From assembly GCA_902489445.1 (NCBI GenBank), contig CABTZX010000001.1, positions 38,606 through 102,605 on the forward strand: DNA of 64,000 nt, in the 5' to 3' direction. The DNA comes from an uncultured Bacteroidales bacterium. Lineage in GTDB: Bacteria; Bacteroidota; Bacteroidia; Bacteroidales; Porphyromonadaceae. Below the pieces are notes generated by a model. That model saw only the letters and a list, made by a program, of their open reading frames with translations. It was not told the DNA's origin and searched no databases. A program made the position numbers and the translations under genes. Positions 3,595-62,123 of the stretch are shown here, one piece after another. How positions within the stretch are numbered: position 1 is the first letter of the stretch; each line of letters opens with the position of its first letter.

Positions 3595-3704
3595 AAAAGG
3601 TATATACCTTTTCAGTGAAAGGTATATAAGTTTCGTTTCAAAGGTATATAGGTATCATCCGATAGTTATATAGCTTTCGGCAAGTGAAAACTATAGGTAG
3701 TTTC
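3595..3704. repeat. array of 5 tandem copies of the palindromic-box repeat (unit about 22 bp; core AAAGGTATATACCTTT)
   Basis: aaaaggtatatacctttt / gaaaggtatataagtttc / caaaggtatataggtatc / gatagttatatagctttc / gaaaactataggtagtttc. Confidence 0.85.
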
Positions 3705-3716
3705 AGTCGGAATCGT

Positions 3717-3724
3717 TATCTTTG
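3717..3724 (+). promoter_or_regulatory. candidate Bacteroidetes sigma-A -7 element (TAnnTTTG) upstream of the SOD gene
   Basis: TATCTTTG lies about 50 nt upstream of the ATG at 3774. It matches the TAnnTTTG consensus of Bacteroidetes primary promoters. Confidence 0.3.
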
Positions 3725-4370: not shown

Positions 4371-4451
4371 CATTGCGTAAAGCGCGGCGAGCAGCATCGC
4401 GCTGAAACTGCGCTGCAACCTTCGGAAAAGCTAACCGAAGAAAGACCGAAC

Positions 4452-4483
4452 GACGGGTGAGGGAATCAATTCCCCCACCCGTC
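4452..4483 (+). terminator. hairpin downstream of the SOD gene (no clear T-tract)
   Basis: GACGGGTGAGGG-aatcaatt-CCCCACCCGTC forms an imperfect 12-bp stem about 80 nt after the stop codon. Confidence 0.3.
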
Positions 4484-4637
4484 TTCCCTTAAATGCTGTT
4501 CTATTAGGCTCGCGAGCAGGTCTGATAGACTGTAGACGTTTCACGTCGCTTTTCTTGCAGTTGCTACGCTTCTCGTTAATGAGATATAGAGGAATGAGGG
4601 GTGGTTTTCCGTTAGTAATCGCAAGAAAGCAGTAATT

Positions 4638-7298
4638 TTGCGAGGAAACAGGTATCATACGTATATGACGGACGAACAAGACAATATGGGGCTATTTAAC
4701 GAGCAAAACGGAGAATCAAGCGGAGAATCAAACGAAGAACAGTTGCATTCCGCGCAAAAGAGCGAAATGGAAGGTGATTCGATAGTGGGCGAACCTATGG
4801 CACACTCAGAAGCAACTCTGCCTGCTGACGAGGATATCAAAACGCTGCCGGGAATGTATCGTACGTGGTTCTTGGATTATGCTTCCTATGTAATCCTTGA
4901 GCGCGCTATACCCCATATTGAGGATGGCCTTAAACCGGTGCAGCGGCGCGTCTTATACGCGATGCATCTCTTTGAGAATGGTCATTTGCATAAAGTCGCT
5001 AAGATAGTAGGGCAAACGATGGCGTATCATCCGCATGGAGATGCTTCCATTAACGATGCTCTGGTACAACTCGGTCAGAAAGGATTACTTATTGATACGC
5101 AGGGAAACTGGGGGAATATCCTCACCGGAGATGAAGCTGCCGCCGGACGATACATCGAAGCAAAGCTGTCGTCCTTTGCGCTGGAAGTGGCTTTTGACGA
5201 TAATATTACTGAGATGCGCCCAACTTATGATGCTACTGCCGAGGAACCTGTTTATCTGCCGGTACGCTTTCCGCTCCTTTTGGCACAAGGAGCCGAGGGA
5301 ATTGCCGTAGGTCTTTCGTCCAAAATATATCCGCATAATCCCAAGGAACTTTTGGAAGCTGCAATTGCCTATTTGGAAGGTAAAGAGTTTGAGCTGTATC
5401 CTGACTTTCCCACCGGTGGATTGCTTGATGTAGATCGCTATAATGATGGTCGGCGTGGGGGGCAAATGAAGAGCCGTGCGCGTATAGAACGTATCGGAGA
5501 TCGGGTGCTGAGTATCACTTCGCTTCCGTACGGTAAAACAACGGCAATGCTGATTGATTCGATTTTACGTGCCAACGACAAGGGACAGATCAAGGTAAAA
5601 CATATAGACGATATGACGGCCCAGGAGGCGGATATACGCATTCAGCTACCGCAAGGCGTTTCCACGGATAAAACAATTGACGGATTATATGCCTTTACCG
5701 ATTGCGAAGTATCCTTAGCACCCAATGCTTGCGTGATACAGGATGGAAAGCCGGCATTCCTCGGTGTATCGGATCTTTTGAAGCATAGTGCCGATAGAAC
5801 CGTCGAATTACTGAAAGCTGAATTGGAACATCGGCTACACGAATTGCGCGAAGGGCATGTAGCGGCCTCATTGGAACGGATCTTTATTGAAGAACGCATC
5901 TATAAGGAACAGCCCTTTGAAGAGGCTTCTAACGAAAAAGAAGCCTTGGATTATGTTGAAAAACGTATTCTGGCGTTGCCCGGGCTCACTTTTGTGCGAG
6001 CCATTAAACGTGAAGATCTGAAACGTCTTTTGGAAATAAAGATGGCGCGCATTCTTCGTTTTAACCGAGCGGCTCACGATAAGAAGATTGCCCGAATCGA
6101 ACAAGAGATGGCACAGCTCGCAGATAATATTGAGCATATTGTAGCCTATACGATTGCCTATTACAAACGTTTGATTGAGGAACACTTTGCAGACTGGCAA
6201 CGGAAAACAACTTTGGCACGCTTTTCCAATATAGAGGCAACCAAAGTGATAGAAGCTACCGAACGTCTCTTTTGGGATGCTGAGGGCGGTTTTGCCGGTA
6301 CTCAGATTAAGAACGGAACCTTTGTAACAGAATGTTCGCTATTAGACGATATGATCGTTTTCTTCCGGGATGGAACTTATCTTATTACTAAAATTGAGGA
6401 GAAGAAGTTTTTAGGCAAAAAGGAGGTTATTCATATTGATCGGTATATACGTAATGATAAGCGAACCATTTATAATGTAATTTATCGTAGTGGAACACAG
6501 GGCCCTTGTTTCATAAAACGATTCTACGTTACCGGGATGGTTCGCGATAAAGAATATAATTTAACTACCGGAAAGGCAGGCTCGAAGGTGCTTTACTTTA
6601 CTGCCAATCCCAATGGAGAAGCTGAAACCGTGCGCATAACTCTTAAGCAACAACTGAGAATGCGTAACTTGGTTTTCGAAAAAGATTTCAGCGAAATACT
6701 CATTAAAGGGCGAACGAGTAGAGGAAATTTGGTAACTCGAGCCACGATTCAGCGTATTTTGCTTAAAGAAAAAGGTGCATCTACGCTGGGCGGTCGTAAG
6801 GTTTGGTTCGATAAGGACGTGCTTCGCATAAACTTTAACGAACAAGGCACTTTGTTGGGCGAATTTGAGGCAGAGGACAAATTATTGGTTGTGTGCAAAA
6901 GTGGCTTGTACTTTACGGCAGAAGTGGATGAAAGCGTTCATTTCCCGGCAGATTTGCTCTGTGTAGAGCGTTTTGATCCCAATAAGGTATGGAGTGCCGT
7001 CTACAGAGAAGGTGAGCAGGGATATGTATACTTAAAGCGTTTTCAGTTTACGGATCGCGAAAAACCTCTACAACTGCAAGGCGAAGGCAACAAACTGATG
7101 CAGCTGAGCGATGCGGCATCTGCATCCCTTGTAATTCGTTATGGTGGTAAGGACGAGCATAGACCCGAGGATCAGGAATCAATAGTTGATTTTGTTGGAG
7201 TAAAAGGCATAGGCGCCAAAGGGAAACGACTTACAACACGTGAGGTTTCTGAAGTAGAAGTAGTTGAAAACGAGGAAGAAGAATCTACAGGAGAATGA
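4638..7298 (+). CDS. parC: DNA topoisomerase IV subunit A-like protein (GyrA/ParC family)
   Basis: 886 aa. GLKPVQRRVLYAM and YHPHGD active-site-region motifs of type IIA topoisomerase A subunits. The length and divergence fit the Bacteroidetes ParC type. The true start may be the internal Met at about 4665. Confidence 0.75.
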   Translation: MRGNRYHTYMTDEQDNMGLFNEQNGESSGESNEEQLHSAQKSEMEGDSIVGEPMAHSEATLPADEDIKTLPGMYRTWFLDYASYVILERAIPHIEDGLKPVQRRVLYAMHLFENGHLHKVAKIVGQTMAYHPHGDASINDALVQLGQKGLLIDTQGNWGNILTGDEAAAGRYIEAKLSSFALEVAFDDNITEMRPTYDATAEEPVYLPVRFPLLLAQGAEGIAVGLSSKIYPHNPKELLEAAIAYLEGKEFELYPDFPTGGLLDVDRYNDGRRGGQMKSRARIERIGDRVLSITSLPYGKTTAMLIDSILRANDKGQIKVKHIDDMTAQEADIRIQLPQGVSTDKTIDGLYAFTDCEVSLAPNACVIQDGKPAFLGVSDLLKHSADRTVELLKAELEHRLHELREGHVAASLERIFIEERIYKEQPFEEASNEKEALDYVEKRILALPGLTFVRAIKREDLKRLLEIKMARILRFNRAAHDKKIARIEQEMAQLADNIEHIVAYTIAYYKRLIEEHFADWQRKTTLARFSNIEATKVIEATERLFWDAEGGFAGTQIKNGTFVTECSLLDDMIVFFRDGTYLITKIEEKKFLGKKEVIHIDRYIRNDKRTIYNVIYRSGTQGPCFIKRFYVTGMVRDKEYNLTTGKAGSKVLYFTANPNGEAETVRITLKQQLRMRNLVFEKDFSEILIKGRTSRGNLVTRATIQRILLKEKGASTLGGRKVWFDKDVLRINFNEQGTLLGEFEAEDKLLVVCKSGLYFTAEVDESVHFPADLLCVERFDPNKVWSAVYREGEQGYVYLKRFQFTDREKPLQLQGEGNKLMQLSDAASASLVIRYGGKDEHRPEDQESIVDFVGVKGIGAKGKRLTTREVSEVEVVENEEEESTGE

Positions 7299-9260: not shown

Positions 9261-9348
9261 GAAAAAGGTATATACATATCAAACGAAAGGTATATACCTT
9301 TTGCTCTAAACATCTATACCTATTGAGTGAAAGGTATAGATGTTTTTC
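9261..9348. repeat. palindromic-box repeat array, 4 copies
   Basis: gaaaaaggtatatacatatc / aaacgaaaggtatatacctttt / catctatacctattg / gaaaggtatagatgttttt. Confidence 0.85.
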
Positions 9349-9488
9349 CGAGTAGTGTACAGGTATGCTTCGGAAGTTCCCGATTGGCTATGGAAACCCA
9401 TACCGGCACATCGGCAAAATAGCTACCTTTGCCAAAGAGAATTTAGGGTTGATCTCAACGGAGCATCCCAACAAGGTAGAAGGCGTGT

Positions 9489-13639: not shown

Positions 13640-14656
13640 ATGGAAAAAACTGATTGGGCCTCGTTAGGCTTTGGTTATCACAAAACGGATTACAACGTAC
13701 GCTGCTACTACCGCAACGGTAAGTGGGGCGAGTTGGAAGTAACTCAGGACGAAACTATAACCCTTCACATGGGAGCTACCTGCCTGCACTACGGACAGGA
13801 AGCCTTTGAAGGTCAGAAGGCGTTCCGTGGCAAGGACGGAAAGATTCGCATCTTCCGCATCCACGACAATGCTAAGCGTATGATTCGTTCCGCTGAAGGG
13901 GTCGTAATGCAACCTGTTCCCGAAGAACTCTTTGTTGAAGCATGCCTGAAGGCAGTTAAGCTCAACGAACGCTTTGTTCCGCCTTACGAAAGCGGAGCTT
14001 CGCTCTATATTCGTCCTCTGCTCATCGGCTTGGGCGAACAGGTTGGTGTTAAACCCGCTCCCGAGTATCTCTTCGTTGTATTCGTAACGCCCGTAGGTCC
14101 TTACTTCAAGGAAGGCTTCAAGCCCACTCCTATGGCTATTATGCGCGGATACGACAGAGCTGCCCCCTTAGGTACCGGTACGATCAAGGTGGGCGGTAAC
14201 TATGCCGCCGGTATGGTGCCCACAGTTCTCTGCCACGAAAAGGGCTATTCCGCATGCCTCTTCCTCGATGCAAAGGAAAAGAAGTATATCGATGAATGCG
14301 GTCCCGCTAACTTCTTCGGAATCAAGAACAATACCTATATCACGCCGAAGTCCACTTCCATCCTGCCTTCCATCACCAATATGAGCTTGATGCAGTTGGC
14401 TGAAGATATGGGCATGAAGGTAGAACGCCGTCACGTCCCCGAAGAAGAACTCGCCGAATTTGAAGAAGCCGGTGCTTGCGGTACAGCTGCCGTGATCAGC
14501 CCCATCCTTCGCATCGACGACTTGGACGAACATAGGACGTACGAAATCGCTAAGGACGGCAAGCCCGGTCCCGTTTGCGAAAAGCTTTATCACAAACTCC
14601 GTGCCATTCAGTACGGTGACGAAGCTGATCCCTACGGATGGGTTACCGTCTTGTAA
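13640..14656 (+). CDS. ilvE: branched-chain amino acid aminotransferase
   Basis: 338 aa PLP fold-type IV BCAT signature (EGQKAFRGKDGKIRIFR...). Confidence 0.9.
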   Translation: MEKTDWASLGFGYHKTDYNVRCYYRNGKWGELEVTQDETITLHMGATCLHYGQEAFEGQKAFRGKDGKIRIFRIHDNAKRMIRSAEGVVMQPVPEELFVEACLKAVKLNERFVPPYESGASLYIRPLLIGLGEQVGVKPAPEYLFVVFVTPVGPYFKEGFKPTPMAIMRGYDRAAPLGTGTIKVGGNYAAGMVPTVLCHEKGYSACLFLDAKEKKYIDECGPANFFGIKNNTYITPKSTSILPSITNMSLMQLAEDMGMKVERRHVPEEELAEFEEAGACGTAAVISPILRIDDLDEHRTYEIAKDGKPGPVCEKLYHKLRAIQYGDEADPYGWVTVL

Positions 14657-15520: not shown

Positions 15521-15586
15521 CTATAGACTTTCTGAAAATACTCTATAGACTTTCTCCAGATACCCTATAGACTTTTTCCAGATATG
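15521..15586. repeat. 22-bp-period minisatellite, three copies, core CTATAGACTTT
   Basis: CTATAGACTTTCT starts at 15521, 15543 and 15565. The spacing is exactly 22 bp. Confidence 0.8.
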
Positions 15587-15705
15587 TCCGTACAAACGCT
15601 CGGACAGCATGGGAGCAACGATTTGTTCGTATGGGAGAACCGCTGCATTTCCTCGGTAGAAAAGAGTGCGAACGTGCGCATGTATGGGGTCGTTCGTGCC
15701 TAGGT

Positions 15706-15886
15706 TAGTGGGCAAAGGTGCGCTGCGGTGAGGGGCGTTGGTGGGAGGATTGATGGGGAAAGTGCGCTGAAGTTGGGGCGGAGGTGCGCTGCGATGGACG
15801 CGTTGGTGCGCAGGAATGAGGGGCATGTGCGCTAAAGCTGGGGGGAAGGTGCGCTGCGGTGCGGGCAGGAGGTGGTAGGGTACGAT
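15706..15886. repeat. G-rich tandem repeat with a period of about 66 bp, core GGTGCGCTGCG(G/A)TG, about 2.5 copies
   Basis: GGTGCGCTGCG occurs at about 15717, 15783 and 15849. Each unit also carries a (A/T)GTGCGCT(G/A)AAG(T/C)TGGGG half-site at about 15760 and 15826. Confidence 0.7.
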
Positions 15887-15920
15887 CGGTATGTTTGTTT
15901 GAGGGTATCTGAATTTATCG

Positions 15921-16010
15921 GAGCAAATCGGAACTAATCGGAAGGTATCGGATCATTTCTGATAAGTTCTGATTGACTCTGATAAGTTCCGATAAACTCC
16001 GATTGGGTAA
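15921..16010. repeat. helically phased short repeats: four ATCGGA followed by five (C/T)(C/T)GAT(A/T) at about 10-11-bp spacing, the two halves being reverse complements
   Basis: Sequence: tATCGGAgcaaATCGGAactaATCGGAaggtATCGGAtcatttCTGATAagttCTGATTgactCTGATAagttCCGATAaactCCGATTggg. Confidence 0.7.
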
Positions 16011-16119
16011 GTATTGACGCGGAGGTATATAGGTGGGTGGGGCTTTCAGTGAAAAGGGTCAAAAGCGTGGTAGGAAGAGGGCGGCTCTGTGGGTGAGATG
16101 GGTTAAAAGAAGGGGAGGT

Positions 16120-16343
16120 GTGGGGTGGTTGTTGTATCTCGCGCTTCGCTTTTTGTAGTTCTGTGTCGGGAAGGGTCGGGTCTGCCATTTTGTTTGTCCG
16201 AGTGGGGTGGGGCAGTGAAACGCATGGAAGTGGGGTGGTTGTTGCATCTCGCGCTTTGCATTTTGTAGTTCTGTATCGGGAAATGTCGGGTATGCCGGTT
16301 TGTTTGTCAGAGTGGGGTAGAGCAGTGAGGCGCATGGAAGTGG
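16120..16343. repeat. two tandem copies of a roughly 112-bp unit (about 85-90% identity)
   Basis: GGGGTGGTTGTTG(T/C)ATCTCGCGCTT(C/T)GC(T/A)TTTTGTAGTTCTGT(G/A)TCGGGAA...GCATGGAAGT occurs at about 16120-16230 and again at about 16233-16343. Confidence 0.85.
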
Positions 16344-16354
16344 GGCGAATGCGC

Positions 16355-20280: not shown

Positions 20281-20365
20281 CAAAGGTATATACGTTTCGT
20301 TCGAAAGGTATATACCTTTCCATCAAAAGGTATATAGGTATCGTTTGAAAGTTATATACCTTTTG
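20281..20365. repeat. palindromic-box repeat array, 4 copies, between the convergent mutS2 and pnp 3' ends
   Basis: caaaggtatatacgtttcg / ttcgaaaggtatatacctttcc / atcaaaaggtatataggtatcg / tttgaaagttatatacctttt. Confidence 0.85.
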
Positions 20366-23472: not shown

Positions 23473-23560
23473 GAAAAAGGTATATACCTATCAATGAAGA
23501 TGTATATACCTTTCGAACGAGATGTATATACCTTTCGTTTGAAAACTATATACCTTTTTA
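23473..23560. repeat. palindromic-box repeat array, 4 copies
   Basis: gaaaaaggtatatacctatc / gaagatgtatatacctttcg / cgagatgtatatacctttcg / gaaaactatatacctttt. Confidence 0.85.
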
Positions 23561-26509: not shown

Positions 26510-29500
26510 ATGTGGAGGTTCAATGAAAATATAAAAGAAATAAGAGCTAAGGCAGAAAGAGATTTTACTAATAGAGTTTTTTCCACTATAGCTCCATTCT
26601 ATAATACTAAAATAACTGCTGGGAACTTAAAAGAAATAAGAACTAAAGTAGAGGATGATTTTACTAGAAGAGCTAATCATGTAGCTGGGTTATTAGGAAT
26701 AAATCTAATTGGTATCACTACTAATATTGAAAACTTTGGTTTAGAAAAAGGTAAGACAGCTGCTGAAGCTATGGCTAATTTATCCTATACTTTTGAATTA
26801 GAAGGTCCTTCAGAAAAGACAGCATTATTTGCTTCATTAGTTAATGACTTAGGATATGAACCGCAAGAAACAGTTATAACTTCTAAAGTAGTTAACTCTG
26901 CTGAAGAAGCTGATGCTGTACAAATAACCTACCCATTAGGTAATAAGAGTAGAAAAGAAACATTAGAACTAATAAATAAACTAGGCATAGAAAATTATTC
27001 TATTGACCCTAGAACTAATGTAATAACTGTCACTGTATTTAATCAGAAGAATGGTAAACTTACATTGACAGCAGAAGAAGCAGAAAAACAAAGAACATTA
27101 AGTGAAGAATTATATGGTAAAGAAAGAAGTGGATGGAAGTGCTCCGCAAAATTCCTCAAATCAGATTATCTCAATACGAGAGTTCGTAGAGAAATTTATG
27201 CCAGAGAGCTTGAAAGAGATGGAAACAGAGGAAAGCAACAAGACATACGTCTTCATAAGAAACTCAAAGCAGGATTAAAAGAAACTACAACTAGTCTACA
27301 AGATACAAGTAGACAAAGAGGGAGTCAATTCTTTGGAGAACACGATGCTATATCTAGTAATATTGTAGTAGTAAATGAGAGTAATTCAGGTGAAGAAAAC
27401 TCAATAACAAGAAGAAATACTGAAAAGGAAATAAAAGAAAATGCTAGAATAAGTATTCCCTTAGGTAAAAGCATTGGTGATATTATCTCAGGGAGAAGAA
27501 CAGCTATAACTATAGAAAGAAATAATGCAACTAAGCGTGATTTTTACATCTTAAAAGATATAGAGGCTGGGCAAATATTCTCTATTAAAGATAACTCTGG
27601 AAAAACAGTTTTTGTTAGAGCCACAAAAAAACTACATAAAGTAAAGAGAGAAGGTGTTGGTGATGAATGGGCTGAAAGAAACTTTGGTGACACAAGAGAA
27701 AGAGAAATCTTTGCTACAAAAGATAATAGAGAGTTTTCTGAAGTAGAGTTCGAGTATGTAGGTGATAAAATAGATGCCTTATTAAATAAAGATAAAATAC
27801 TAGAAGAAATTAAAAGTATATTTGAGAGAGCTCTAGATAATGGTTCTCGGGATTTTAGATTAGATTTTGCTAGTGGAATAAGTGATCCTGATGTAATAAA
27901 TAGAGTTGTAGAATATATCAACAGTGTAGCTGATGATTTTGGATGTATTCCTTTTAATGTTATATTTCCGGAGAATTTAAATACAGGTAAGCTCAATATA
28001 ACAGCACAAGAAGAAACAGAAAGTGATACCACAACTAATAGTTCAGTATCTATAGAACAAAGAAGAAAACTTAATCAGACATTTGACCCTAAGAGGAGAA
28101 AAGCTAGAGCTAACCTTATAGCTAGATATTTTAGTAATTACTTGGATGCTAAAGTAGCAAAATTTGATAAGAGAGTACAAGAAGCTTTAACTAGTGATAC
28201 CGTATCTGAAGAAGATAAACAAGAATTAAGAGCTTTTCTAGCTACATTGGAAGCTACAGGAAGTAAGAGACTAGAAGTATTACGGAGAATAGGACCTAAA
28301 AAGATATTAGAAAAGATAAGAAATTCTTTAAATAAAACACTTAATGATACATTAAGTGGTAATAGAGAGAAAATTATAGAGGGAAAGAAAAAAAACGCTC
28401 TTAGGAAAAATCCAAATCTTACAGAAGAACAATTAGAAGCTGATGCTAATAATTTTATTAAAAACATAGTAGAAAAATATCCTGCTATAATAGAGAATTT
28501 TACAGCTCTAGCTGAGGAAGCTATTCCTATGATTAATAAAAGAGAGCAAATAACTATAAATGAAGATAGTGTTCTCTCTTATATTAACTCTCAGGAAAGT
28601 ATGTTTCAAGAAGAGTTTAATGAAGATGGTACTGAAGATATTGTAGACATGGAGGAACAACCTAAAGATCATTTTCTCTCTGACTTTAGAACTACTTCTT
28701 CACAAGAAACAATGTCTATGAGAGTTAGGAAGAGATTAGGTGAAATAATAAAAATAAATCCTGATGGTACTCCTGTATTAGATGATATGTATATGGGTGT
28801 ATATCTAAATGAAGATGAAGTATATTCTACACTTAAAAGAGATTTGTCTAGTATGGTCACTTCTGAGGATATGATTCCTTTATTAGAGGAATCAGCTAAA
28901 ACTAAACCTTGGGTAAAGCAAGTAATACAAACAGTAGAGAGAGATCTTTTATTTAAGACTCAATTATACCACAATATGAGAAGTGATTTCCAAGAATATT
29001 GGGTACAAGAAAAGTCTAAGGAATCTAAAGGATTTAATACATTACCTATTAATAGAAAATCAGGTATATGGCATATGCTTGAATCTTGGAAGAATAATGT
29101 AGAAGGTGATAATGTATTAACTACTACTAATACTAATGATAAATATGGTAGTATCTATGATAATAATGGTAATATTATTAAAGAGAATATAAAGAAAGCA
29201 AAAACATCATTTTTAAATATAAGACGAATATTAAGGGGTATAAAAGATATTAATGAGTTAGATAAAAATTTTTATAGAGATGTCACTAATTTATTAAAAT
29301 CTTTTGGAATAAATGTGGGGATTGATACAGTAGAACAAACAATAAAAGTAAATAAACCTGAAGAAGTATATGCTGGAATTAGTCCTCTGGTAATAATTAC
29401 AGATGTAGTAGAAAAAGATAATATAACTACTACTAATAATTTTTATAAAAAATTCAGCACAGCCTATTCTAATATAGCTAAATTCTTTGCTCCAGCTATG

Positions 29501-32500
29501 GGATCAGTGATGGAGGACTCTGCTAGACAGAATGGTAAAAACTATCAATCTTATGTAGCTCCTTCTTATCTAGGTAAACTGATGAAAAGTATTAAGGATA
29601 AAAATACTGAAGAGGGTACTAGGTTTCTAGATGAGAATTACAAAGCTTTTGGCTGGTTTTATAATAAAAAAGCTGATTTCTTTTTTAGTGATTGGATAGA
29701 TAAATTATATAAAAATGAAATCTTTAATCGTGAAAAAGGAATGAGATTTAGAGATCTTATAGCTCATAAGACAGTATTAAATCAAGATGATAAAAACTAT
29801 GTAGATTGGGGTAAAAAGGATGTCATTCTATCTCTATTAACTGAGTTTCAAAAAGCTGATGTAGATGGTACAGCTTGGTATTATGTACCTCTATTTAGTG
29901 ATGCTCCCTCTGCTGATTTTATTAGGTTTGTGAAGTATGGTGATGAAGTTGGTGATTTTAAAGAAGGAGATAAACCATATAAAGAGGCTATAAAAGAAAA
30001 ACTCCGTGGAGTTGCAATGCAGGAATTTGAAAGAATAGTTCTTGTAAAAGAAAGAGATGCTATTAGAAATAGTGAAACAGCTACTGCTGAAGAAAAAGAA
30101 AGAGTAGGAGCTATAGATAACTATGATATAAAGAGGGATAAGAATGGTAATATAGTAAAGAAAGGTGGAGCAGAGTTTAAGTTCTTTCCTCAATTTAATG
30201 AATGGGGAGTATTTGATGCCATTAGTGACTTCCTAGAAGATCCTAATAATTCTGGTGAATATCCTTCAAAACTTGTTGATAGGTTTGTTGAAAGATACTT
30301 GGAAGAAGGTCTTGATAATGCTCTTGAAGTATGGAAGAATGAACAAGTATTTGAATTAGATGAATATGGTGGATATAAAAACTTTGATATAAGCACAGAG
30401 TTAGATACTGATACTCTTACGGATATTTTAAATTCTTTAAGTACCGATTTATATGATGTAAGGTATGGTCCTTTTGTAGAATTGTCTACAGAAGATATAG
30501 ATATACTATCTAAAGTTTATGGTATTTATGATGATTTTAACAAATATGTAATTTTCAATAAAAACAAAATTGATGATAGAGTTGTAAACAAATACATAAA
30601 TGACTTTAGAACAGCCGTAAAAGAATTACCTAATTCAGAAGTATTTGATGCTATAAGAAAAGACTCTATTGAATTAAGTGAATTATCACCCTTAGTAAAA
30701 TTCCTCAGAAACTACTACTACAATAATGCCCTAGCTACTTCTCAAATTATTCAACTAACTAATACTGACTTAGCTTACTTTAAGGACATGACTGATTTCT
30801 ATAAGAGAAATAAACAGAACCATGCTCCTTCACTAAGGCTAGATACTAGTGCAGTAAATCCCTTTACAGGAGAAAAAGTAGGTAGAAAAGTAGAAAGAGC
30901 CATCACTATTAAAGATGAATATATTCCTTCTACTGGTGTAGAAGATATAAGAAAAATTCTTACAGAAAGAGGAGTAAGTAAGACAGAAATAGATTTTATC
31001 TGTAGTCAATTTAGAAACGTTAATGTAACTGATGCTCAATCTTATAGAAGTCTAGACTCTTATAGGGCTGTTAAGTGTATGGTGGGTGATTGGACACAAC
31101 AAATGGAGACTGCCTATAATAATATACTTAATGATAGATGGACTGCTACTGATATGATGACAGTGTTTAATACATTAAAGCCTTATGTATACACACAGAA
31201 CTCTGTAGATAGTGGTGTAGCTGGTGGAGGTAAAATAAAAGTTCCTATACAACATAAGAACTCAGAGTTTCTTCTTCTGGCTACTTATAATCTAGTATCT
31301 GGTGCTCTAGGAAGAGCAAAGAAACTGAAGATATTGGATCAATTTATGAGAGACAATCAAATTGATGTAGTTCACTTTGAGTCTGTAGTAAAAGTAGGTA
31401 AGCAAGGTGCTATAGATGTAAATCAATTTGATGAAAATAATCTTGATGGTTTTAGAGAGTACCTAGAAAAAGCTATACGCACTGAAGATGGAAATTATAA
31501 TCCACAAGTAGTTCATGAAATAAGCTATGAGGATTATGGTATTCAGATGGAAACAGGACAGCATATAGTAGACACTAATAATCTTGTAGGTACTCAGGTA
31601 CAAAGATTAATAGGGGGAGACATAAGTGAGTCTGCTGTATTAGAACTAGATCAAGTAGATGATTTATTACTCTCTGATATGGGTGATGATGAAGTAATAC
31701 CCACATTAGGAGTTACTGCTGGTTCTTTGAGAGCTCAATCAGGTATAAGTGTAGAACAGTTTAGAGAGATAAAAGAACTTAGAGATTATGCAAGACATGC
31801 TAAGAACCTTTATGAAGACTATGCTGACTTGCAATATAAAAAGGGAGAAAAGATAGATCAGAATAAACTAGATCAACTTAAATCTGAGTACGAAACTGCA
31901 AAAGAAAAGTATGAAGCTAAAAGAAAGAGTACAAAGTCTGGATTAAGTAAAAAGCAATGGCATACTTTATTTAATGCTCTAATGGTAGAGAATATCATAC
32001 AGGGTTATAATAAAGTAGATAAACTATTCTCTGATAAAAAATCTATAAGTGATGTACTCAAGAGACAGATTAATTCTAGTCCTAGATATAGCAGGGATTT
32101 GCTTGATGCTTGTAGTCTCGATGAGAATGGAGAGTTCTTAATTCCTCTTGTTGATCCTACTAATAGTGATAGAGTACAAGCCCTTATGGCTAGTATAATG
32201 AGAAAGGAGATCACTCAACAAAAGATTAAAGGTGGTGCTCTATTCCAAGCTTCTTCTTTTGGTCTTACTGATGAACTAAATATTATTTATGAGGGTGAAG
32301 GTGAGAATAAAAGAATTAAAGAGTTTGAGTGCTATATGCCTGCTTATTCTAGAGAATTCTTTGAACCATTTATGAATTCTAAAACTCATGAACTTGATAT
32401 TAGTCAGCTACCAGATGAACTAAAAGAAATAGTTGGGTATAGAATACCTACAGAAGATAAATATTCTATGATGCCTTTAAAGATTAAAGGCTTCTTACCC

Positions 32501-35206
32501 TCTTCTATGGGTACTGCTATTATGCTTCCTGCTGAAATTACTACTATCACAGGTTCAGGATTTGGCATTGATGAATTACAATTAATGCTTCCTGAGTTTG
32601 ATATTATTGAATATAACAAAGGAAAGGCAAGAGCTGCATATAAAGAGCAATATAAACTCAGCGCAAGAGATAAGTCACTAGCAACTAACTCAGATATACC
32701 TAGTTTTGAAGATTGGTTTGAGGAGAATAAAGAAGATTTCAAATACAATAAACCTAAGTTCTCTAAAGTAAAATATGATTTCTCTAAGTCTCCCAAAGAG
32801 AATGGTACTAGAGCTAGAAATAATCTTTACTTAGATTTAGTACGTAGTGTACTTACTAATTCTGATACTGCTGATAAGATATTTAAAGGAGTTACTCCTA
32901 CAGAACATCATAGAGTAGGTAGAATTAATACTATACTTTTAAATGCTACTAGAAAAGAAATAGCTGAAGCTTTAGGATGTAGAGAATCAGAAGCTGTAAA
33001 GAAGTTATTACAAGTAGATGAGAGTACAGCTACTAACTTAGCAAAGAAATTAAGTCCTAAGATGGATCCACTATCACCTATATCTCAATTAGTTTCTCAC
33101 CAAGCTAATATGGTAGGACAAAAGATGATTGGGGTATATGCAATTAATCATGTGCAGAATGCCATTCTTCAATATGCTGAAGATACTGCCTTCACTCATC
33201 CTTTACTTCTAAATGGTAGATCAAGGAACAAACTAACTGAAATGTTAGATAGTAGTGGTGGTGCTAGAAACTTTATTACCAGGAACATAGCAGGGTATCT
33301 TTCTATGGCAGTGGATAATAGTAAGGAACAAATGCTTGCTACTCATAATCAGAATAACTTCACTTGTGGTGTCACTATGGCTCTCATAAGAGTGGGTTAT
33401 CAACCTAAGGAAGTAGCTCTATTACTGCAACAGCCTATCGTAAGAAGAATGACTGATGCATACTCTAGCAATGAATATGGAGAATATGCATCAGGAAAAG
33501 ATGTAATAAGTAATGTAATAGAAGATCTACAGAAAAAGATTTTAAGCATAGATCCCAGCTTTTCTTTTACAGGTATGACAGGTGAGTCTTTATCTGCATG
33601 GAATACAGCTGGTGCGTACTCAATGGAAAGGCTTGCGAATAATATAGTTCAGGATACAGAAAGAAGAAAAGCACATATAAAAGGAGAAGATCTAAATTCT
33701 TTAGTAGATCAATATAAAGTAGCTTTACTTTTCAGGAACTTATATTCTAAAGGAGAAGAACTTTCAAACTTTGTAAATAGAACTAGACCTGATCAAATAA
33801 AAAATGCAGCAGGACCTACTATAGCTCAAACACAAGAAAATGAAGCTAAGTATGTAGATGCTTATAGAAAATCTCAACCTGTAAAGAGAGGTGATGTGAT
33901 AGTTACTCCTCCTGTAGCTATTACTGGAGCTAATATATTTAGCATAACAGATAATATAGAAAGTATTACTGAGGATGAGCTAAGAAAAATGTCTATGGAA
34001 TCTTCTATACCCTATCTACAAGCTCAGTTCTTGTGTGGTATACAAGGTGCTAAAAAGTTCTATGGTAAGTTCTTTCCATACTATAATGAGAATATCATTG
34101 CAGCAAAGGATAAAGTACTTAGTCTAGCTAAATCTAATCATATTAGTGCTAAAGAAGTAAATGATATTTATCAAGAACTTAGTACTTATGTATTATCAGG
34201 TGCAGAGTTCTTGGCAGGAGATACAGCTTTAATGGGTGATAAAAGATTCTTGAATGGTTATGAAGAAGTAAAGGATTACTACATAAATGAATTTCCTGAT
34301 GACTTTCAAGCTCTCTTAAAAGAGGCAGAAAAGGATGAAAATTCAGACCTGAAGAGCAACTTTTTTATAGATAATCTTACTGTAGCTTTTAATAGAAAAG
34401 TCAACTCAAAAGTCATTGAATTAAATACAGAAGGTAAGATGACTAGAGAAACAAGGGAATCTATACAAAGAGATTGGGAAGATCTACTTTATTCAAGTAA
34501 TCCTAAGTATGTAAAACTAGCTCAAGCTCTATTTACCTATAGTTACTTTAGAAGTGGATTAGCTTATACACCTAAGGGGTTTGGTCACTTAGCACCTTCC
34601 TCTATAAAAACTAGTGTTCCTGGTTTTGTGGATGCAATTAAATTATTAGATGATAAGAATTTAAACTTTGATGAGTTTGCCGAACAGTTTATCATTAATC
34701 ATAGAAATAATAACAAATTAGTTGCTAATGCCTATAGCTTAGATAAAAGAGAGTTCATCAACACTGTTAATGGTAAAAATGAAATAAAGACTGAGCTTTT
34801 GTTTGACACTTCCGGAGAAAATAGTGGGAAGAGATACAAGTCTATCATAAAAGAGAGATATTATTCAGGGGGAAAGGTACGGTATCTATATTCTCCGTTT
34901 ATAAAGAAGACTATAAATAGTAGAGATTTTGTTTATACACTTACAGAGTATACTGATAATACAGTGAAATATAGATTAGTACAGAATCTTGGTATGCCAT
35001 CTGTGTTTAAAGAATATAGCTTTGGGAAAAACTACGATAAAATAGACAGTAGTCTTATAGCTAATATTAATAATACTGACCTCTCTTGGAATAGACGTAC
35101 TATGAGAACCATAGATGTTTTACGTAAAAGTAGTGGAATGAAGGTATATGGCTATTATGTAAAAGAAGATGTGGCTGCAGTAGTAGAGAATAGTCAAAAA
35201 GAATAA
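26510..35206 (+). CDS. giant hypothetical protein (2898 aa), cytoplasmic-type, horizontally acquired
   Basis: 8.7-kb ORF with no stop codon in an AT-rich context, which is essentially impossible by chance. No signal peptide or TM segment. Lys/Glu/Asn-rich, with a coiled-coil stretch around residue 1750. No Walker A, DPPY/NPPY, DxDGD, DEAD/H or polymerase motifs found by eye. Confidence 0.85.
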   Translation: MWRFNENIKEIRAKAERDFTNRVFSTIAPFYNTKITAGNLKEIRTKVEDDFTRRANHVAGLLGINLIGITTNIENFGLEKGKTAAEAMANLSYTFELEGPSEKTALFASLVNDLGYEPQETVITSKVVNSAEEADAVQITYPLGNKSRKETLELINKLGIENYSIDPRTNVITVTVFNQKNGKLTLTAEEAEKQRTLSEELYGKERSGWKCSAKFLKSDYLNTRVRREIYARELERDGNRGKQQDIRLHKKLKAGLKETTTSLQDTSRQRGSQFFGEHDAISSNIVVVNESNSGEENSITRRNTEKEIKENARISIPLGKSIGDIISGRRTAITIERNNATKRDFYILKDIEAGQIFSIKDNSGKTVFVRATKKLHKVKREGVGDEWAERNFGDTREREIFATKDNREFSEVEFEYVGDKIDALLNKDKILEEIKSIFERALDNGSRDFRLDFASGISDPDVINRVVEYINSVADDFGCIPFNVIFPENLNTGKLNITAQEETESDTTTNSSVSIEQRRKLNQTFDPKRRKARANLIARYFSNYLDAKVAKFDKRVQEALTSDTVSEEDKQELRAFLATLEATGSKRLEVLRRIGPKKILEKIRNSLNKTLNDTLSGNREKIIEGKKKNALRKNPNLTEEQLEADANNFIKNIVEKYPAIIENFTALAEEAIPMINKREQITINEDSVLSYINSQESMFQEEFNEDGTEDIVDMEEQPKDHFLSDFRTTSSQETMSMRVRKRLGEIIKINPDGTPVLDDMYMGVYLNEDEVYSTLKRDLSSMVTSEDMIPLLEESAKTKPWVKQVIQTVERDLLFKTQLYHNMRSDFQEYWVQEKSKESKGFNTLPINRKSGIWHMLESWKNNVEGDNVLTTTNTNDKYGSIYDNNGNIIKENIKKAKTSFLNIRRILRGIKDINELDKNFYRDVTNLLKSFGINVGIDTVEQTIKVNKPEEVYAGISPLVIITDVVEKDNITTTNNFYKKFSTAYSNIAKFFAPAMGSVMEDSARQNGKNYQSYVAPSYLGKLMKSIKDKNTEEGTRFLDENYKAFGWFYNKKADFFFSDWIDKLYKNEIFNREKGMRFRDLIAHKTVLNQDDKNYVDWGKKDVILSLLTEFQKADVDGTAWYYVPLFSDAPSADFIRFVKYGDEVGDFKEGDKPYKEAIKEKLRGVAMQEFERIVLVKERDAIRNSETATAEEKERVGAIDNYDIKRDKNGNIVKKGGAEFKFFPQFNEWGVFDAISDFLEDPNNSGEYPSKLVDRFVERYLEEGLDNALEVWKNEQVFELDEYGGYKNFDISTELDTDTLTDILNSLSTDLYDVRYGPFVELSTEDIDILSKVYGIYDDFNKYVIFNKNKIDDRVVNKYINDFRTAVKELPNSEVFDAIRKDSIELSELSPLVKFLRNYYYNNALATSQIIQLTNTDLAYFKDMTDFYKRNKQNHAPSLRLDTSAVNPFTGEKVGRKVERAITIKDEYIPSTGVEDIRKILTERGVSKTEIDFICSQFRNVNVTDAQSYRSLDSYRAVKCMVGDWTQQMETAYNNILNDRWTATDMMTVFNTLKPYVYTQNSVDSGVAGGGKIKVPIQHKNSEFLLLATYNLVSGALGRAKKLKILDQFMRDNQIDVVHFESVVKVGKQGAIDVNQFDENNLDGFREYLEKAIRTEDGNYNPQVVHEISYEDYGIQMETGQHIVDTNNLVGTQVQRLIGGDISESAVLELDQVDDLLLSDMGDDEVIPTLGVTAGSLRAQSGISVEQFREIKELRDYARHAKNLYEDYADLQYKKGEKIDQNKLDQLKSEYETAKEKYEAKRKSTKSGLSKKQWHTLFNALMVENIIQGYNKVDKLFSDKKSISDVLKRQINSSPRYSRDLLDACSLDENGEFLIPLVDPTNSDRVQALMASIMRKEITQQKIKGGALFQASSFGLTDELNIIYEGEGENKRIKEFECYMPAYSREFFEPFMNSKTHELDISQLPDELKEIVGYRIPTEDKYSMMPLKIKGFLPSSMGTAIMLPAEITTITGSGFGIDELQLMLPEFDIIEYNKGKARAAYKEQYKLSARDKSLATNSDIPSFEDWFEENKEDFKYNKPKFSKVKYDFSKSPKENGTRARNNLYLDLVRSVLTNSDTADKIFKGVTPTEHHRVGRINTILLNATRKEIAEALGCRESEAVKKLLQVDESTATNLAKKLSPKMDPLSPISQLVSHQANMVGQKMIGVYAINHVQNAILQYAEDTAFTHPLLLNGRSRNKLTEMLDSSGGARNFITRNIAGYLSMAVDNSKEQMLATHNQNNFTCGVTMALIRVGYQPKEVALLLQQPIVRRMTDAYSSNEYGEYASGKDVISNVIEDLQKKILSIDPSFSFTGMTGESLSAWNTAGAYSMERLANNIVQDTERRKAHIKGEDLNSLVDQYKVALLFRNLYSKGEELSNFVNRTRPDQIKNAAGPTIAQTQENEAKYVDAYRKSQPVKRGDVIVTPPVAITGANIFSITDNIESITEDELRKMSMESSIPYLQAQFLCGIQGAKKFYGKFFPYYNENIIAAKDKVLSLAKSNHISAKEVNDIYQELSTYVLSGAEFLAGDTALMGDKRFLNGYEEVKDYYINEFPDDFQALLKEAEKDENSDLKSNFFIDNLTVAFNRKVNSKVIELNTEGKMTRETRESIQRDWEDLLYSSNPKYVKLAQALFTYSYFRSGLAYTPKGFGHLAPSSIKTSVPGFVDAIKLLDDKNLNFDEFAEQFIINHRNNNKLVANAYSLDKREFINTVNGKNEIKTELLFDTSGENSGKRYKSIIKERYYSGGKVRYLYSPFIKKTINSRDFVYTLTEYTDNTVKYRLVQNLGMPSVFKEYSFGKNYDKIDSSLIANINNTDLSWNRRTMRTIDVLRKSSGMKVYGYYVKEDVAAVVENSQKE

Positions 35207-37693: not shown

Positions 37694-38292
37694 TACGCGT
37701 TGTTTCTCTCTATCAACCACATTGATTAGCCATTTCAATTCTTTCGCTCCTCCTACTTATTATATAGGTGGAAGCGTGATCTTTTACCGAGAAAAGAACG
37801 CTCTTTATGCGAAGAAATAGCAGAGAACTTCGCTACCCCCGTATGCACGCTGTTACGCCATGGTACATTCCTCAAATAAGGCGGATTATAGCGCGCAGTT
37901 TAGTGCAGAATATACTGGTATGAGACGCAGTTATATGACCAAATGCTACACGTAATAAAAAAAGACAGGCCAATCGATCGCTCAATCAGCCTGCCGAGGG
38001 CTTTACATCAACGGCGGGTGAACCAATACCATCTTCTGCCCTCACCGGCAAAGATAGCTAACTCCTATCACTTTTGTCCATCGCCATAGTGGCAGACTAA
38101 CTACCAATCGCTTTGAGAGCTTAGGCAACGGATACAATACAGCTAACATTTCGCCATATATCGTGGCTAAGGTTGCGCTTAATCATACCAGGTTCTGCTG
38201 CGGCAGGACACGTCTTGGCCAACTGCGATGCGGGTCGCCTTGGCTCGTCCGAGGCTTCCTGTCTCTATTCTTGCTCGTAGTTTTACCCTCCT

Positions 38293-38690
38293 CAATCCAT
38301 ACGCTCTCGCTCATCAATCCATAGATGCTCACTTCTTAATCCGTACGCTCTTGCTCCTTTATACATACGTCCTCAATCCTTTCTACGTACTTCCTCGATT
38401 CTTTATACGTAGCTTCATAATCTTTTGTACGTACCTTCTCTATAAATCATTAAAAGGATTTATATAAACCGTTTAAATGATTTATACGCGTACTTTAAAG
38501 GATTTGTACAAATCATTTAAAGAATTTATCGAGTGTCACCGGATAAAAAATCGACAACCTACGCATCACCGGTCATCAGCCTACGTATAATGAATCGTCA
38601 AACTACGCATCACTGGTCAAGATCTACATATTAATGGTCATCAATCACGAATAAGCAGGCGGCGAAAACGTACAAATACGCATAGAGATA
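38293..38690. repeat. MITE-like repeat element copy A, containing a 22-23-bp minisatellite (core TACGTAC / ATCC(A/G)TAC) and a palindromic AAAGGATTTATATAAAC core
   Basis: About seven tandem units of 22-23 bp (38293-38455) are followed by aaatcattaaaaggatttatataaaccgtttaaatgattta. A 160-bp stretch is homologous to 44105-44265, and the ACGTACAAATAC end motif is shared. Confidence 0.7.
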
Positions 38691-39244: not shown

Positions 39245-39571
39245 ACGATCTTGTTTTGCTAACTAACTGATGTTTCTTCTTACGTGGCAAAAGTACGCTC
39301 TTTTTGGGAAGATAACAAGGAAAATAATCGGCAAAACGCTGTTTTAGCCACTTTTTCACGCGTTAAGGGGTCTAAAGTTGCGTTAGAAAAAAAATAATGA
39401 TTACTTTTGGTGCAGGTACCGAAAAGTAGTGGTTGTAGGTTGCGCTTTGGCTCAGGTGAAGCACGGCTAAAACAAAGAAATTGGGCAACCGAAAAAGAAG
39501 GAAAGAATGAAAAAGAGAGGTACACAAAATTATACAGACGAGAGTTTAACTACACAATAAGAAGAATCGTT

Positions 39572-39841
39572 ATGAACAAAACAGAATTCATTGCTCGCGT
39601 AGCTGAAGAAGCCGGGCTGACAAAAGCGCAAGCTCAGAAGGCTGTAGCTGCATTCAGCGACGTAATTGCAGACCAAATGCGTAAGGGAGAAAAAGTTGCT
39701 ATCCTTGGATTCGGCACTTTCTCTGTTACGGAAAGACAGGCACGTATGGGTATCAATCCTCGCACCAAAAAGCAAATCAAGATACCTGCACGCAAGAGTG
39801 TTAAATTCAAACCGGGTTCCGGTCTTGATCTCACGAAGTAG
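39572..39841 (+). CDS. DNA-binding protein HU
   Basis: 90 aa: MNKTEFIARVAEEAGLTKAQAQKAV...GFGTFSVTERQARMGINPRT. The ORF-track start at 39407 is an upstream in-frame extension. Confidence 0.9.
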   Translation: MNKTEFIARVAEEAGLTKAQAQKAVAAFSDVIADQMRKGEKVAILGFGTFSVTERQARMGINPRTKKQIKIPARKSVKFKPGSGLDLTK

Positions 39842-42188: not shown

Positions 42189-42260
42189 TCGGCGCAGCCA
42201 CCATATTGTTTCCTAAACTTCTTGTTGAGTTTGGCTACACGTTCTATCGGCGTAGGTACG

Positions 42261-42366
42261 TTGGTATAGATGCATCGGGCGATAGGTATAGATGTTTCCA
42301 TCAAAAGGTATAGATGTTTCGATCGATAGGTATATACGTCTTGCGCAAAAGGTATATGAGTTTCAT
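42261..42366. repeat. palindromic-box repeat array, 5 copies (GGTATAGATG variant)
   Basis: ttggtatagatgcatcg / gataggtatagatgtttcc / caaaaggtatagatgtttcg / gataggtatatacgtcttg / caaaaggtatatgagtttca. Confidence 0.85.
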
Positions 42367-50222: not shown

Positions 50223-50308
50223 AAAAAGGTATATAGGTTTCAGTTGATAGGTATATAAGTTTCAGTTGATAGGTATATAGGTTTCACTCGGGAGGTATAC
50301 CTTTCGTG
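50223..50308. repeat. palindromic-box repeat array, 4 copies, in the divergent korD/lipoprotein promoter region
   Basis: aaaaaggtatataggtttcag / ttgataggtatataagtttcag / ttgataggtatataggtttcac / gggaggtatacctttcg. Confidence 0.85.
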
Positions 50309-50455
50309 TCAGCAGTTTCGTTATCTTTGTCGCGCGATGCTTTCTTTGAGTAGTGCGCTCCCCTTGCAGGCAGGGAACAAGATGCTTGCTGGTTGGTTAC
50401 AGTGCGCAGCTCAAAGGAGCAAAAGAGTATTAGGAACATAGAAAGAGTAAGGATC

Positions 50456-59562: not shown

Positions 59563-59585
59563 TCAAAAAGGTATATATCTATTCG
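59563..59585. repeat. solitary copy of the palindromic-box repeat upstream of uvrB
   Basis: The sequence is tcaaaaaggtatatatctattc. Confidence 0.5.
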
Positions 59586-61946: not shown

Positions 61947-62036
61947 ACTGAAACTTATATACGTTTCAAGTGATAGGTATATACCTCTGAAACGAAAGGT
62001 ATATAAGTTTTGTAGCAAATGTATATACCTTTTGTC
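61947..62036. repeat. palindromic-box repeat array, 4 copies, between tRNA-Pro and leuS
   Basis: gaaacttatatacgtttcaa / gataggtatatacctctgaaa / cgaaaggtatataagttttg / caaatgtatatacctttt. Confidence 0.85.
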
Positions 62037-62123
62037 CCGTGAAAATAGACCCTATGGACGATGAATGGCAACGGTTTATACCCAATGAGCCTTATTTCTC
62101 CTTTAGTTGTGCGGCAAAATAGC

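Follow-up and report, generated by a model that had tools for sequence, protein, structure and literature searches.

The intergenic arrays described here are, very probably, copies of a non-coding tandem repeat family that is distributed across the Bacteroidota and whose unit can be written as A[A/T]AGGTATATA-nn-TtT[C/T]-N6. They lie in a stretch of 64,000 nucleotides from an uncultured Bacteroidales bacterium of the Porphyromonadaceae (GenBank assembly GCA_902489445.1, contig CABTZX010000001.1, positions 38,606 to 102,605; hereafter the window), where a repeat unit of 22 bases, composed of AAAGGTATATAnnTTT and a 6-base spacer, is stacked head-to-tail between genes at eight places, i.e., about one locus per 8 kb (Table 1). 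The arrays carry the unit of this family in rigid phase, occupy intergenic DNA and are constrained within the species, and in other lineages arrays of the same kind are linked to a gene for an HU-related protein, HU-HIG. An earlier examination of the letters without database searches (hereafter the sequence-only reading) had located seven arrays and one solitary copy, and a search with the 16-mer AAAGGTATATACCTTT, allowing up to three mismatches, recovers them in exact 22-bp register. All 26 matches fall into seven arrays of four or five units plus the solitary unit, against a mean of 0.49 matches in dinucleotide-preserving shuffles, none of 100 of which reached 26. Tandem Repeats Finder also gave a period of 22, with 0% indels in most of the five arrays that it detected, and the register is kept in all of the window arrays despite spacer sequences that differ from array to array. 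Placement of the arrays inside coding sequences, which the sequence-only reading had named as grounds for giving up its proposal, was looked for as well: although open reading frames (ORFs) of at least 100 amino acids make up 84% of the window, they contain none of the 26 matches.

Within the unit an A-tract is followed by a 10-bp core centered on TATATA, whose consensus has dyad symmetry, then by a T-tract and about 6 nt of spacer. When 31 units were aligned by polarity and the information content of each position was calculated, the conserved motif proved asymmetric, A[A/T]AGGTATATA-nn-TtT[C/T] followed by about six variable bases; the units of the window start with AAAG or ATAG. The perfect palindrome of the sequence-only reading thus survives as a description of the consensus but not of most units, as only 3 of the 31 carry the perfect 16-mer. 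G4 and G5 are kept (about 1.2 bits each) while their would-be partners at positions 12 and 13 are nearly free (0.14 and 0.40 bits), and Watson-Crick pairs are found between positions 4 and 13 in 9 units and between 5 and 12 in 11. Because most units are asymmetric the arrays have a polarity, which is plus for six of them and minus for the one at 23476; a single unit within the 9264 array is inverted. A non-palindromic variant, GGTATAGATG, is found in the array at 42260-42363, at 9330 and, as an inverted copy of the latter, at 9308, and also occurs in the sister species described below. To judge from this recurrence, the variant behaves like a propagated sequence type rather than the product of independent decay.

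The family extends far beyond the window. A scan of species-representative genomes with AGGTATATA-N13-AGGTATATA returned at least 83 stretches, at least about 60 of which have three or more units in register, up to a maximum of ten; among the matches listed, 52 of these roughly 60 carry Bacteroidota names. The array-bearing taxa include Prevotellaceae, Segatella, Hoylesella, Bacteroides pyogenes, Bacteroidetes oral taxon 274, Porphyromonas gingivicanis, P. pasteri and P. miyakawae, Flavobacteriaceae, Chitinophagaceae and Arcicella, and matches of only two units belong mostly to other phyla and look like chance. The form GTAGGTATATACC is present in other lineages, namely a metagenome-assembled genome (MAG) from a termite gut and B. 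pyogenes. Nearly all of the listed arrays are intergenic, their polarity relative to the neighboring genes is about 50/50 over about 60 loci, their spacers and outer flanks vary between lineages, and in some lineages the T-tract or the core differs. In a contig of P. gingivalis (L109), units of AAAGCTATATAGCTTTCG and CCTATATAGGATT alternate with a 22-bp period between prtT and hmuY. The presence of the same kind of array in many Bacteroidota genomes, at orthologous sites of a sister species and in P. gingivalis bears out the proposal that the window holds members of a dispersed family rather than a local duplication. Plasmid and phage collections gave no match to the repeat family, and a scan of viral contigs gave only 6 stretches. 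The distance from one copy of the 9-mer to another has a flat distribution over 10-40 bp in environmental metagenomes, hence a period of 22 is not a general property of that 9-mer; this variable-gap scan serves as background and not as a test, since unrelated AT-rich satellites dominate it, and the family-like metagenomic matches (L117 and L209) have a period of 22.

Comparison within and between species indicates that the arrays are both old and, in the window species, constrained. By protein sequence the organism is not P. gingivalis but a Porphyromonas-like relative: its Sod is at most about 70% identical to those of named Porphyromonas and 69% identical to that of P. gingivalis. Polymorphism was assessed at three arrays in 7-11 metagenomic strains of the same species. 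Copy number is invariant and there is no presence/absence polymorphism, with 3 of 109 columns variable in the sod array (7 strains) and 6 of 85 in the 20282 array (11 strains). Overall 14 of 280 array columns vary compared to 87 of 625 columns of flanking intergenic DNA (Fisher p = 5e-5), i.e., the arrays are 2.8 times less polymorphic. A sister species, whose Sod and PNPase are 87% and 91% identical to those of the window species, has arrays at orthologous sites upstream of sod (degenerate) and in the gap between the EF-G and methyltransferase genes, and these keep the 22-bp period and can be aligned unit for unit. There the cores have decayed, e.g., from TATATA to TATGCA, CATGTA or TATGTG, and the AAA and TTT frames mostly persist. 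Divergence between the species is 30% in the array against 35-37% in its flanks at one site and 47% against 48-55% at the other. Arrays that are orthologous unit for unit and diverge as their flanks do must be old and vertically inherited. Constraint on them, or homogenization, is thus a feature of the window species that its sister lacks. The array stays with its promoter and sod even where other genes flank them, and in a more distant relative (Sod 72% identical) no array is found within 20 kb.

The one gene that recurs beside such arrays encodes a protein of a DNA-binding family. When the ORFs near all listed arrays were clustered, a single recurrent family emerged, the 126-residue HU-HIG protein (TIGR01201, "HU_rel"). 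Approached from the arrays, an array lies 0-105 bp past the HU-HIG stop codon in four lineages (Chitinophagaceae, Bacteroidales, Prevotellaceae and an oral "SR1"/uncultured bin), where by our estimate about 0.2 adjacencies would be expected by chance. Approached from the gene, all five HU-HIG homologues recovered (77-83% identity) are followed by a 22-bp array 11-14 nt past the stop codon, the period being 22 in each case with no period constraint imposed. Since the Bacteroidales lineage was found both ways, the two approaches together give eight independent lineages, and in all eight an array follows the HU-HIG stop codon, at 0-14 nt in seven and at about 105 nt in one. The GGTATATA core is present in four of the five gene-side arrays, one of them from Tannerella sp. 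In a Cytophagaceae MAG (L239, 1768-1829) the palindromic core is AAAATGAGTACTCATTTT / TGAGTACTCA instead of GGTATATACC, with no change in the A4/T4 frame, in the period or in how far the array lies from the stop codon. The array past an HU-HIG gene usually ends in a perfectly palindromic unit with T5-T9 behind it. In one contig (L075) the gene's last codons together with its stop codon make up a pseudo-unit that precedes the first unit by exactly 22 bp, and in another (L232) successive units are inverted copies that could form 17-bp stems with G-U wobble. No array lies upstream of the HU-HIG gene in the loci examined, and the classical HU genes carry none. The HU-HIG proteins are basic (isoelectric points 9.2-9.75), and their genes sit in neighborhoods that look like genomic islands, with integrase, type I restriction enzyme, Fic and DUF3990 genes. 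Among the neighbors of about 60 arrays, the extent of this search, clustering yielded no recurrent transposase family. The function of HU-HIG has been called enigmatic, with "almost entirely no conserved linkages" (PMC5499826).

As a separate observation, ACAGGTATATATGTGTTGAGGT arrays together with a Bacteroidota-type HU-HIG gene also occur in oral bins labeled SR1 or "uncultured bacterium" (L014, L027, L033, L040 and L046), which either horizontal transfer or mis-binning could explain. The window arrays share the unit but not this gene context, as none of them follows an HU-HIG gene. That they are relics of lost HU-HIG genes was considered and rejected, as tblastn finds no coding remnants beside them.

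The explanation that we rank first, though we hold it only tentatively, is that an array is a DNA-level architectural element, a phased platform at which an abundant protein of the nucleoid type would dock or bend the DNA. HU/IHF proteins bind preferentially to DNA that is flexible or distorted. As each unit spans two helical turns, one face of the helix would display the bendable TATATA cores together with the A- and T-tracts that frame them, and the phased array would then offer such a protein a series of docking or bending sites. By genomic linkage only, the prime candidate is the Bacteroidota-specific HU-HIG (TIGR01201) family. The outcome would depend on context: where an array abuts a promoter, as at sod and at 50322, that promoter would be modulated, and elsewhere the array would insulate transcription units from each other or act as a barrier between them. 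We place this role first because the motif and the period are kept where base pairing is not, because the arrays are constrained within the species and because they are tied to a gene family of DNA-binding proteins; the decay seen in the sister species is expected if the trans-acting reader is lineage-dependent.

Several observations weigh against a docking platform, and against HU-HIG as its occupant in particular. The position just past stop codons, the succession of A-tract, palindrome and T-tract, the terminal T5-T9 and the core exchange that keeps the dyad in the Cytophagaceae MAG fit a hairpin equally well or better, and the 22-bp period could be mere inheritance from a duplicated unit. 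HU-HIG has an acidic arm tip (AETEEKF), without the proline by which classical HU intercalates. The HU-HIG orthologue of the Cytophagaceae MAG is 80% identical and has the same arm residues beside a different array core; the core sequence, therefore, cannot be what this protein reads. That HU-HIG proteins are not sequence-specific factors was argued by Burroughs et al. (2017; PMC5499826). Finally, the window has no HU-HIG gene, and its only HU-type gene, a classical HU gene at 39407-39841, has no array after it. A more specific proposal is that the arrays are cis-elements of the massively expanded HU-HIG proteins, which would recognize their shape, or cruciforms extruded from them, rather than the core sequence; scattered over the genome, the arrays would add up to a layer of nucleoid architecture and transcriptional insulation peculiar to the phylum. 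We regard it as unlikely.

The arrays may instead work as hairpins in RNA or single-stranded DNA, in the manner of repetitive extragenic palindromes (REPs), their AU-rich inter-unit stems of 12-17 bp serving as bidirectional terminators, insulators or 3'-end stabilizers. We rank this possibility nearly as high as the architectural role. The small hairpin that the sequence-only reading saw in each unit is doubtful, as the fold predicted for one unit is weak (-3.6 kcal/mol, z -1.3) and its pairing is not maintained. Whole arrays are predicted to fold by pairing of neighboring units around the spacer, with stems of 12-14 bp, and in five of the seven window arrays the fold is far better than in shuffled sequences, with z-scores of -9.9 (the 20282 array), -7.1 (9264), -6.3, -4.5 and -4.0 (61951). 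At 9264 two inter-unit hairpins of 13-14 bp are predicted; the non-palindromic variant stands there as an inverted pair that makes a perfect 14-bp stem. Also in favor of hairpins are the closeness of the arrays to the HU-HIG stop codon (in one lineage about 105 nt away), with their final palindrome, T5-T9 and, in L232, 17-bp stems; the L239 core, which has changed on both sides so that self-complementarity and hence dyad symmetry survive; and the location of five of the eight window loci downstream of a co-directional gene. The other two arrays keep motif and period but lack this folding potential (42260, z +0.7, no better than shuffles; 50225, weak at z -2.4), the within-unit pairs 4-13 and 5-12 are lost without compensation, the hairpin of a single unit is weak, and hairpins would have no need of a fixed period of 22 bp. 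Moreover, the loci at sod, 50225 and 59567 lie between divergent genes, where flanking transcripts should not reach, and canonical GC-rich terminators stand alongside the arrays at pnp/mutS2, after EF-G and in L046. The presence of these separate terminators and the divergent loci uphold the earlier judgment that the arrays are not simply terminators. Hairpin potential is common among the arrays, yet it does not appear to be a conserved property of them. In Rfam 15 the only window matches at gathering score are two tRNAs, so that no family covers the arrays, and at E-values up to 10 only chance miRNA-like matches overlie them; a sigma-70 and terminator scan flagged not even the canonical terminators and is hence uninformative.

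[quoted passage not shown] The density of the arrays (eight loci in 64 kb) and their dispersed, strictly intergenic placement are what such a population would produce, as are the recurrence of the GGTATAGATG type at separate loci and in the sister species, the fixed composite of a termite-gut MAG described below, with similar flanks at its many sites, the P. gingivalis array that abuts a terminal inverted repeat (TIR) of the BrickBuilt type, and divergence between species at the rate of the flanks. The window arrays, however, have no TIRs, leader, tail or shared flanks: apart from promoter boxes their flanks have nothing in common, and neither the IS5-type TIR GAGACCTTTGCA (within 2 mismatches) nor a leader or tail is found beside any of them. 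Equally at odds with selfish spread are the lack of copy-number or presence/absence polymorphism at three loci in 7-11 strains, polymorphism below that of the flanks, the survival of arrays at orthologous sites in more than one species, and the lack of a linked transposase among the array neighbors and of matches in the plasmid and phage collections.

In the termite-gut Bacteroidales MAG, Hs463_bin99, a fixed four-unit composite of two direct GTAGGTATATACCAAA units and two inverted ones recurs at no fewer than 15 sites (at least 15), with a similar outer sequence of about 40 bp and a GTAG head; it is seen in the stretches L013, L017, L021, L024, L042, L052, L059, L063, L072, L079, L087 and L094. 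In sequence it looks like a MITE/REPIN-type derivative of the same core.

Two arrays stand directly upstream of putative promoters, and the unit itself, in its right part (TAnnTTTy), is similar to the Bacteroidetes -7 box, which Bayley and colleagues reportedly defined in 2000 as TAnnTTTG. The -7 boxes at sod and 50322 share the same array geometry, one unit downstream and 2 nt off register, at 17 nt from the end of the sod array and about 15 nt from the end of the 50225 array. Both boxes sit within a common 13-nt block, TCGTTATCTTTGT (second copy at 50317-50329), that is kept in the sister species. Relative to the assumed transcription start, the unit centers fall at -38.5, -60.5, -82.5 and -104.5 at sod and at about -37.5, -58.5, -80.5 and -102.5 at 50225. 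A consistent helical phase between array and promoter is confined to these two; the nadE, metG and uvrB promoters are farther away and show no common phase. It is conceivable, but improbable, that the arrays are promoter-related modules whose -7 look-alikes act as RNA polymerase decoys, as upstream elements or as a source of new promoters. The strong conservation of T10, A11, T14 and T16 (T15 less so) with positions 12-13 free reproduces the TAnnTTTG pattern, the boxes lie one unit downstream of two arrays, and the sequence ATAGCTACyTTTGC of the nadE and metG promoters resembles the right half of the unit. Position 17, nevertheless, carries the diagnostic terminal G in just 2 units, with C in 17 and T in 12 of the 31, the spacing of the units does not fit a -33/-7 geometry, arrays also occur between convergent genes and after stop codons with a polarity of about 50/50 across taxa, and the T-tract or core differs in other lineages.

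Least probable, despite a palindromic consensus, phased sites and two arrays that overlap the region upstream of promoters, is that the arrays are the operators of one sequence-specific dimeric transcription factor, the regulon envisaged as an option by the sequence-only reading, as their neighbors are functionally unrelated housekeeping genes, some sites lie between convergent 3' ends or after stop codons, no orientation rule emerges from the 50/50 polarity over about 60 loci, 4-10 sites per locus at one locus per 8 kb resemble no known regulon, and the sister species retains the genes although its orthologous arrays have decayed.

Literature searches, which included the motif strings GGTATATACC, AAAGGTATATA and AGCTATATAGCT, found no description of the family; the genome paper of P. 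gingivalis W83 was outside these searches. Among known elements, the closest kind is, by analogy, the head-to-tail extragenic palindromic repeat of the REP/BIME (bacterial interspersed mosaic element) type, as the comparison with REP/BOX-like elements in the sequence-only reading had anticipated. In E. coli, REP/BIMEs are associated with IHF/HU-type proteins, and BIMEs carry IHF sites. REP/BIMEs of Proteobacteria are repetitive extragenic palindromes associated with the REP-associated tyrosine transposase, RAYT (Di Nocera et al., 2013; PMC3733652). As in these, the palindromes are short, imperfect and extragenic, are present in many copies (here 26 units at eight loci), form clusters of head-to-tail or mixed orientation, fall into sequence types within a genome and persist at orthologous sites. 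Unlike REP/BIMEs, the repeats of the window species have no GTAG or CGTC head, are AT-rich where the others have GC-rich stems, keep a rigid 22-bp period, occur also between divergent promoters and have a core that is phylum-wide rather than confined to a species or genus; no RAYT is seen among the array neighbors, and the linked gene encodes the non-enzymatic HU-HIG protein.

The BrickBuilt elements of P. gingivalis are MITEs with a minisatellite of 23-nt units, AGACCATAGTATCCTCTCATATG (Klein et al., 2015; PMC4596501). [quoted passage not shown] Identity with BrickBuilt was rejected, as the units are of 22 versus 23 nt and of unrelated sequence (AAAGGTATATACCTTTCGTTCG versus AGACCATAGTATCCTCTCATATG) and the leader, tail and IS5-type TIR are missing. 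Of the relation suggested in the sequence-only reading, therefore, neither the unit nor the TIR, leader and tail holds up; what stands is adjacency, one P. gingivalis array being placed beside a BrickBuilt-type TIR. In that genome (NSLW01000004.1; L109, 13960-14570) a 22/44-bp array at 14135-14253 lies between two BrickBuilt tail-like segments of about 115 bp, 15 bp from the BrickBuilt-type TIR GCAAAGGTCTC and upstream of the haem-uptake gene hmuY. This prtT-hmuY site is the only BrickBuilt element without the 23-nt repeat (Klein et al., 2015; PMC4596501). According to the same authors, the W83 genome paper of Nelson et al. (2003) noted 22-nt tandem direct repeats without locations or comparisons. 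Judged from this second-hand mention, the W83 repeats of 22 nucleotides are probably the same family, with the prtT-hmuY array as one of them.

Other repeats are more distant. PINSR, a 188-bp intergenic repeat of Prevotella intermedia, shows that Bacteroidota do carry amplified intergenic repeats (PMC4755523). Like it, and like the Correia elements of Neisseria, BOX of pneumococcus and ERIC, the arrays are dispersed intergenic repeats for which context-dependent effects on neighboring genes would be expected by likeness; those elements, however, are composites of 100-200 bp confined to a genus or species, whereas here a 22-bp tandem unit has a core common to several families. The 22-bp iterons of R6K and the sopC repeats of F are likewise tandem direct repeats at about two helical turns, and the sopC repeats contain a palindromic protein site, but iterons and centromeres occupy one locus beside a rep or par gene, unlike the eight chromosomal loci in 64 kb with no such gene. 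An iteron, a plasmid or phage origin and a centromere were accordingly rejected, the loci lying among housekeeping genes and without plasmid or phage matches. A clustered regularly interspaced short palindromic repeat (CRISPR) array was also rejected, as a 16-nt motif alternates with a 6-nt spacer and there are no unique spacers, whereas CRISPR repeats of 24-48 bp are separated by unique spacers of comparable length. With bidirectional intrinsic terminators the arrays share an A-tract, dyad and T-tract and, often, a position just past stop codons; they differ in their weak AU-rich stems, their 4-10 units, the frequent loss of the dyad and the canonical terminators alongside. What sets the family apart from described repeats is thus the rigid 22-bp phasing, the phylum-wide AT-rich core, the lack of GTAG/CGTC heads or TIRs, the occurrence in promoter regions and the invariable partnership with HU-HIG.

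The positions of the arrays and their genomic contexts are collected in Table 1. The flanking genes are housekeeping genes with no common function, and the one previously labeled leuS is metG.

Table 1. Repeat arrays, solitary unit and putative promoter boxes, in positions of the window.
Feature	Position	Strand	Units and context
Array, 5 units (fifth, at 3684, degenerate)	3596..3699	+	Units at 3596, 3618, 3640 and 3662; divergent region upstream of sod
Putative -7 promoter box TATCTTTG of sod	3717..3724	+	Adjoins the array, 2 nt off array register
Array, 4 units	9264..9345	+	Units at 9264, 9286, 9308 (inverted) and 9330; between peptidase S41 gene and NAD synthase gene (nadE)
Array, 4 units	20282..20363	+	Between convergent mutS2 and pnp, beside a separate GC-rich bidirectional terminator
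Array, 4 units	23476..23557	-	Between EF-G-like gene (EF-G paralogue) and Methyltransf_30 (mnmC-like) gene; 43 nt from the ATG of the mnmC-like gene
Array, 5 units, mostly non-palindromic variant ATAGGTATAGATGTTT	42260..42363	+	Downstream of rsmD-like methyltransferase gene
Array, 4 units (AKAGGTATATARGTTTCAGTTG; final unit short by 2 nt)	50225..50306	+	Divergent region beside gene for korA-like oxidoreductase subunit
Putative -7-type box TATCTTTG	50322..50329	+	Putative promoter; same placement relative to array as at sod
Solitary unit AAAGGTATATATCTAT	59567..59582	not assigned	Between divergent DivIC-like and uvrB genes
Array, 4 units	61951..62032	+	Between tRNA gene (61766-61840) and metG

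Further observations concern the surroundings of these loci. The nadE and metG promoter regions (9405-9432 and 62105-62132) share a 21-nt block, GGCAAAATAGCTACyTTTGC, that includes the -7 box; extended promoter blocks, this one as well as the TCGTTATCTTTGT block of sod and 50322, are thus reused within the genome. Strains of the same species diverge just 3' of sod (window 4371-4640 versus 2598-3500 in L004 and L006): some have, as the window does, a gene with a DNA_topoisoIV domain, and others have a 98-residue classical HU gene and an RNase E/G gene, placing a rearrangement breakpoint immediately after the sod terminator. A single ORF of 2898 amino acids at 26510-35206 lies in a stretch whose G+C content is very low (31-34% versus 45% for the window) and which may be a foreign or surface-protein island.

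Tandem repeats with a period of 22 bp are not limited to the palindrome family. Between convergent genes at 38279-38640, about 360 bp consist wholly of 22-bp (and 44-bp) tandem repeats, with four unit types back to back, one of which, AAATCATTTAAAGGATTTATAC, resembles the family motif (AAAGGATTTATAC versus AAAGGTATATACC); the classical HU gene lies about 770 bp to the right of this block. The complex repeats at 15521-16345 comprise a 22-bp unit, CTATAGACTTTCTCCAGATACC, in 2.9 copies (15521-15584), a 65-bp unit in 2.3 copies (15710-15858), 10/20-bp repeats (15917-16003) and a 110-bp unit (5 x 22) in 2.1 copies (16120-16345); these units are unrelated to the palindrome family, yet 22 bp or its multiples recur. 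Intergenic 22-bp arrays of other sequence were also seen in P. gingivicanis (AAACCATCCGAGTAAACCACCA; L111, 9396-9456) and in the sister species (AAAAATTATAGATGTTTGAATC; L110, 3572-3641), so that 22 bp looks like a preferred period in this clade whatever the sequence.

Few members of the gut and oral microbiota are as well studied as the Bacteroidota, yet the only literature trace of the family that we found is the second-hand mention of the 22-nt repeats of W83. The arrays probably break short-read assemblies; contigs with a linked HU-HIG gene are mostly no longer than 1-7 kb. Should the arrays serve as architectural or barrier elements, they would do so directly on the promoters or 3' ends of sod, pnp, uvrB and metG and, in P. 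gingivalis, of hmuY, and would matter for promoter mapping, genetic engineering and expression studies. If they are cis-elements of HU-HIG proteins, each HU-HIG gene copy would carry its own array, there would be hundreds of arrays, and loss or change of HU-HIG would explain the decay in the sister species. The window species, with its constrained consensus units, and the sister species, with its decayed ones, together provide a natural experiment on how such repeat families are kept or lost. Lastly, with the array that invariably follows the genes of one HU-HIG orthogroup, a conserved genomic partner is reported for the HU-HIG family for the first time, which makes the function of these proteins experimentally approachable.

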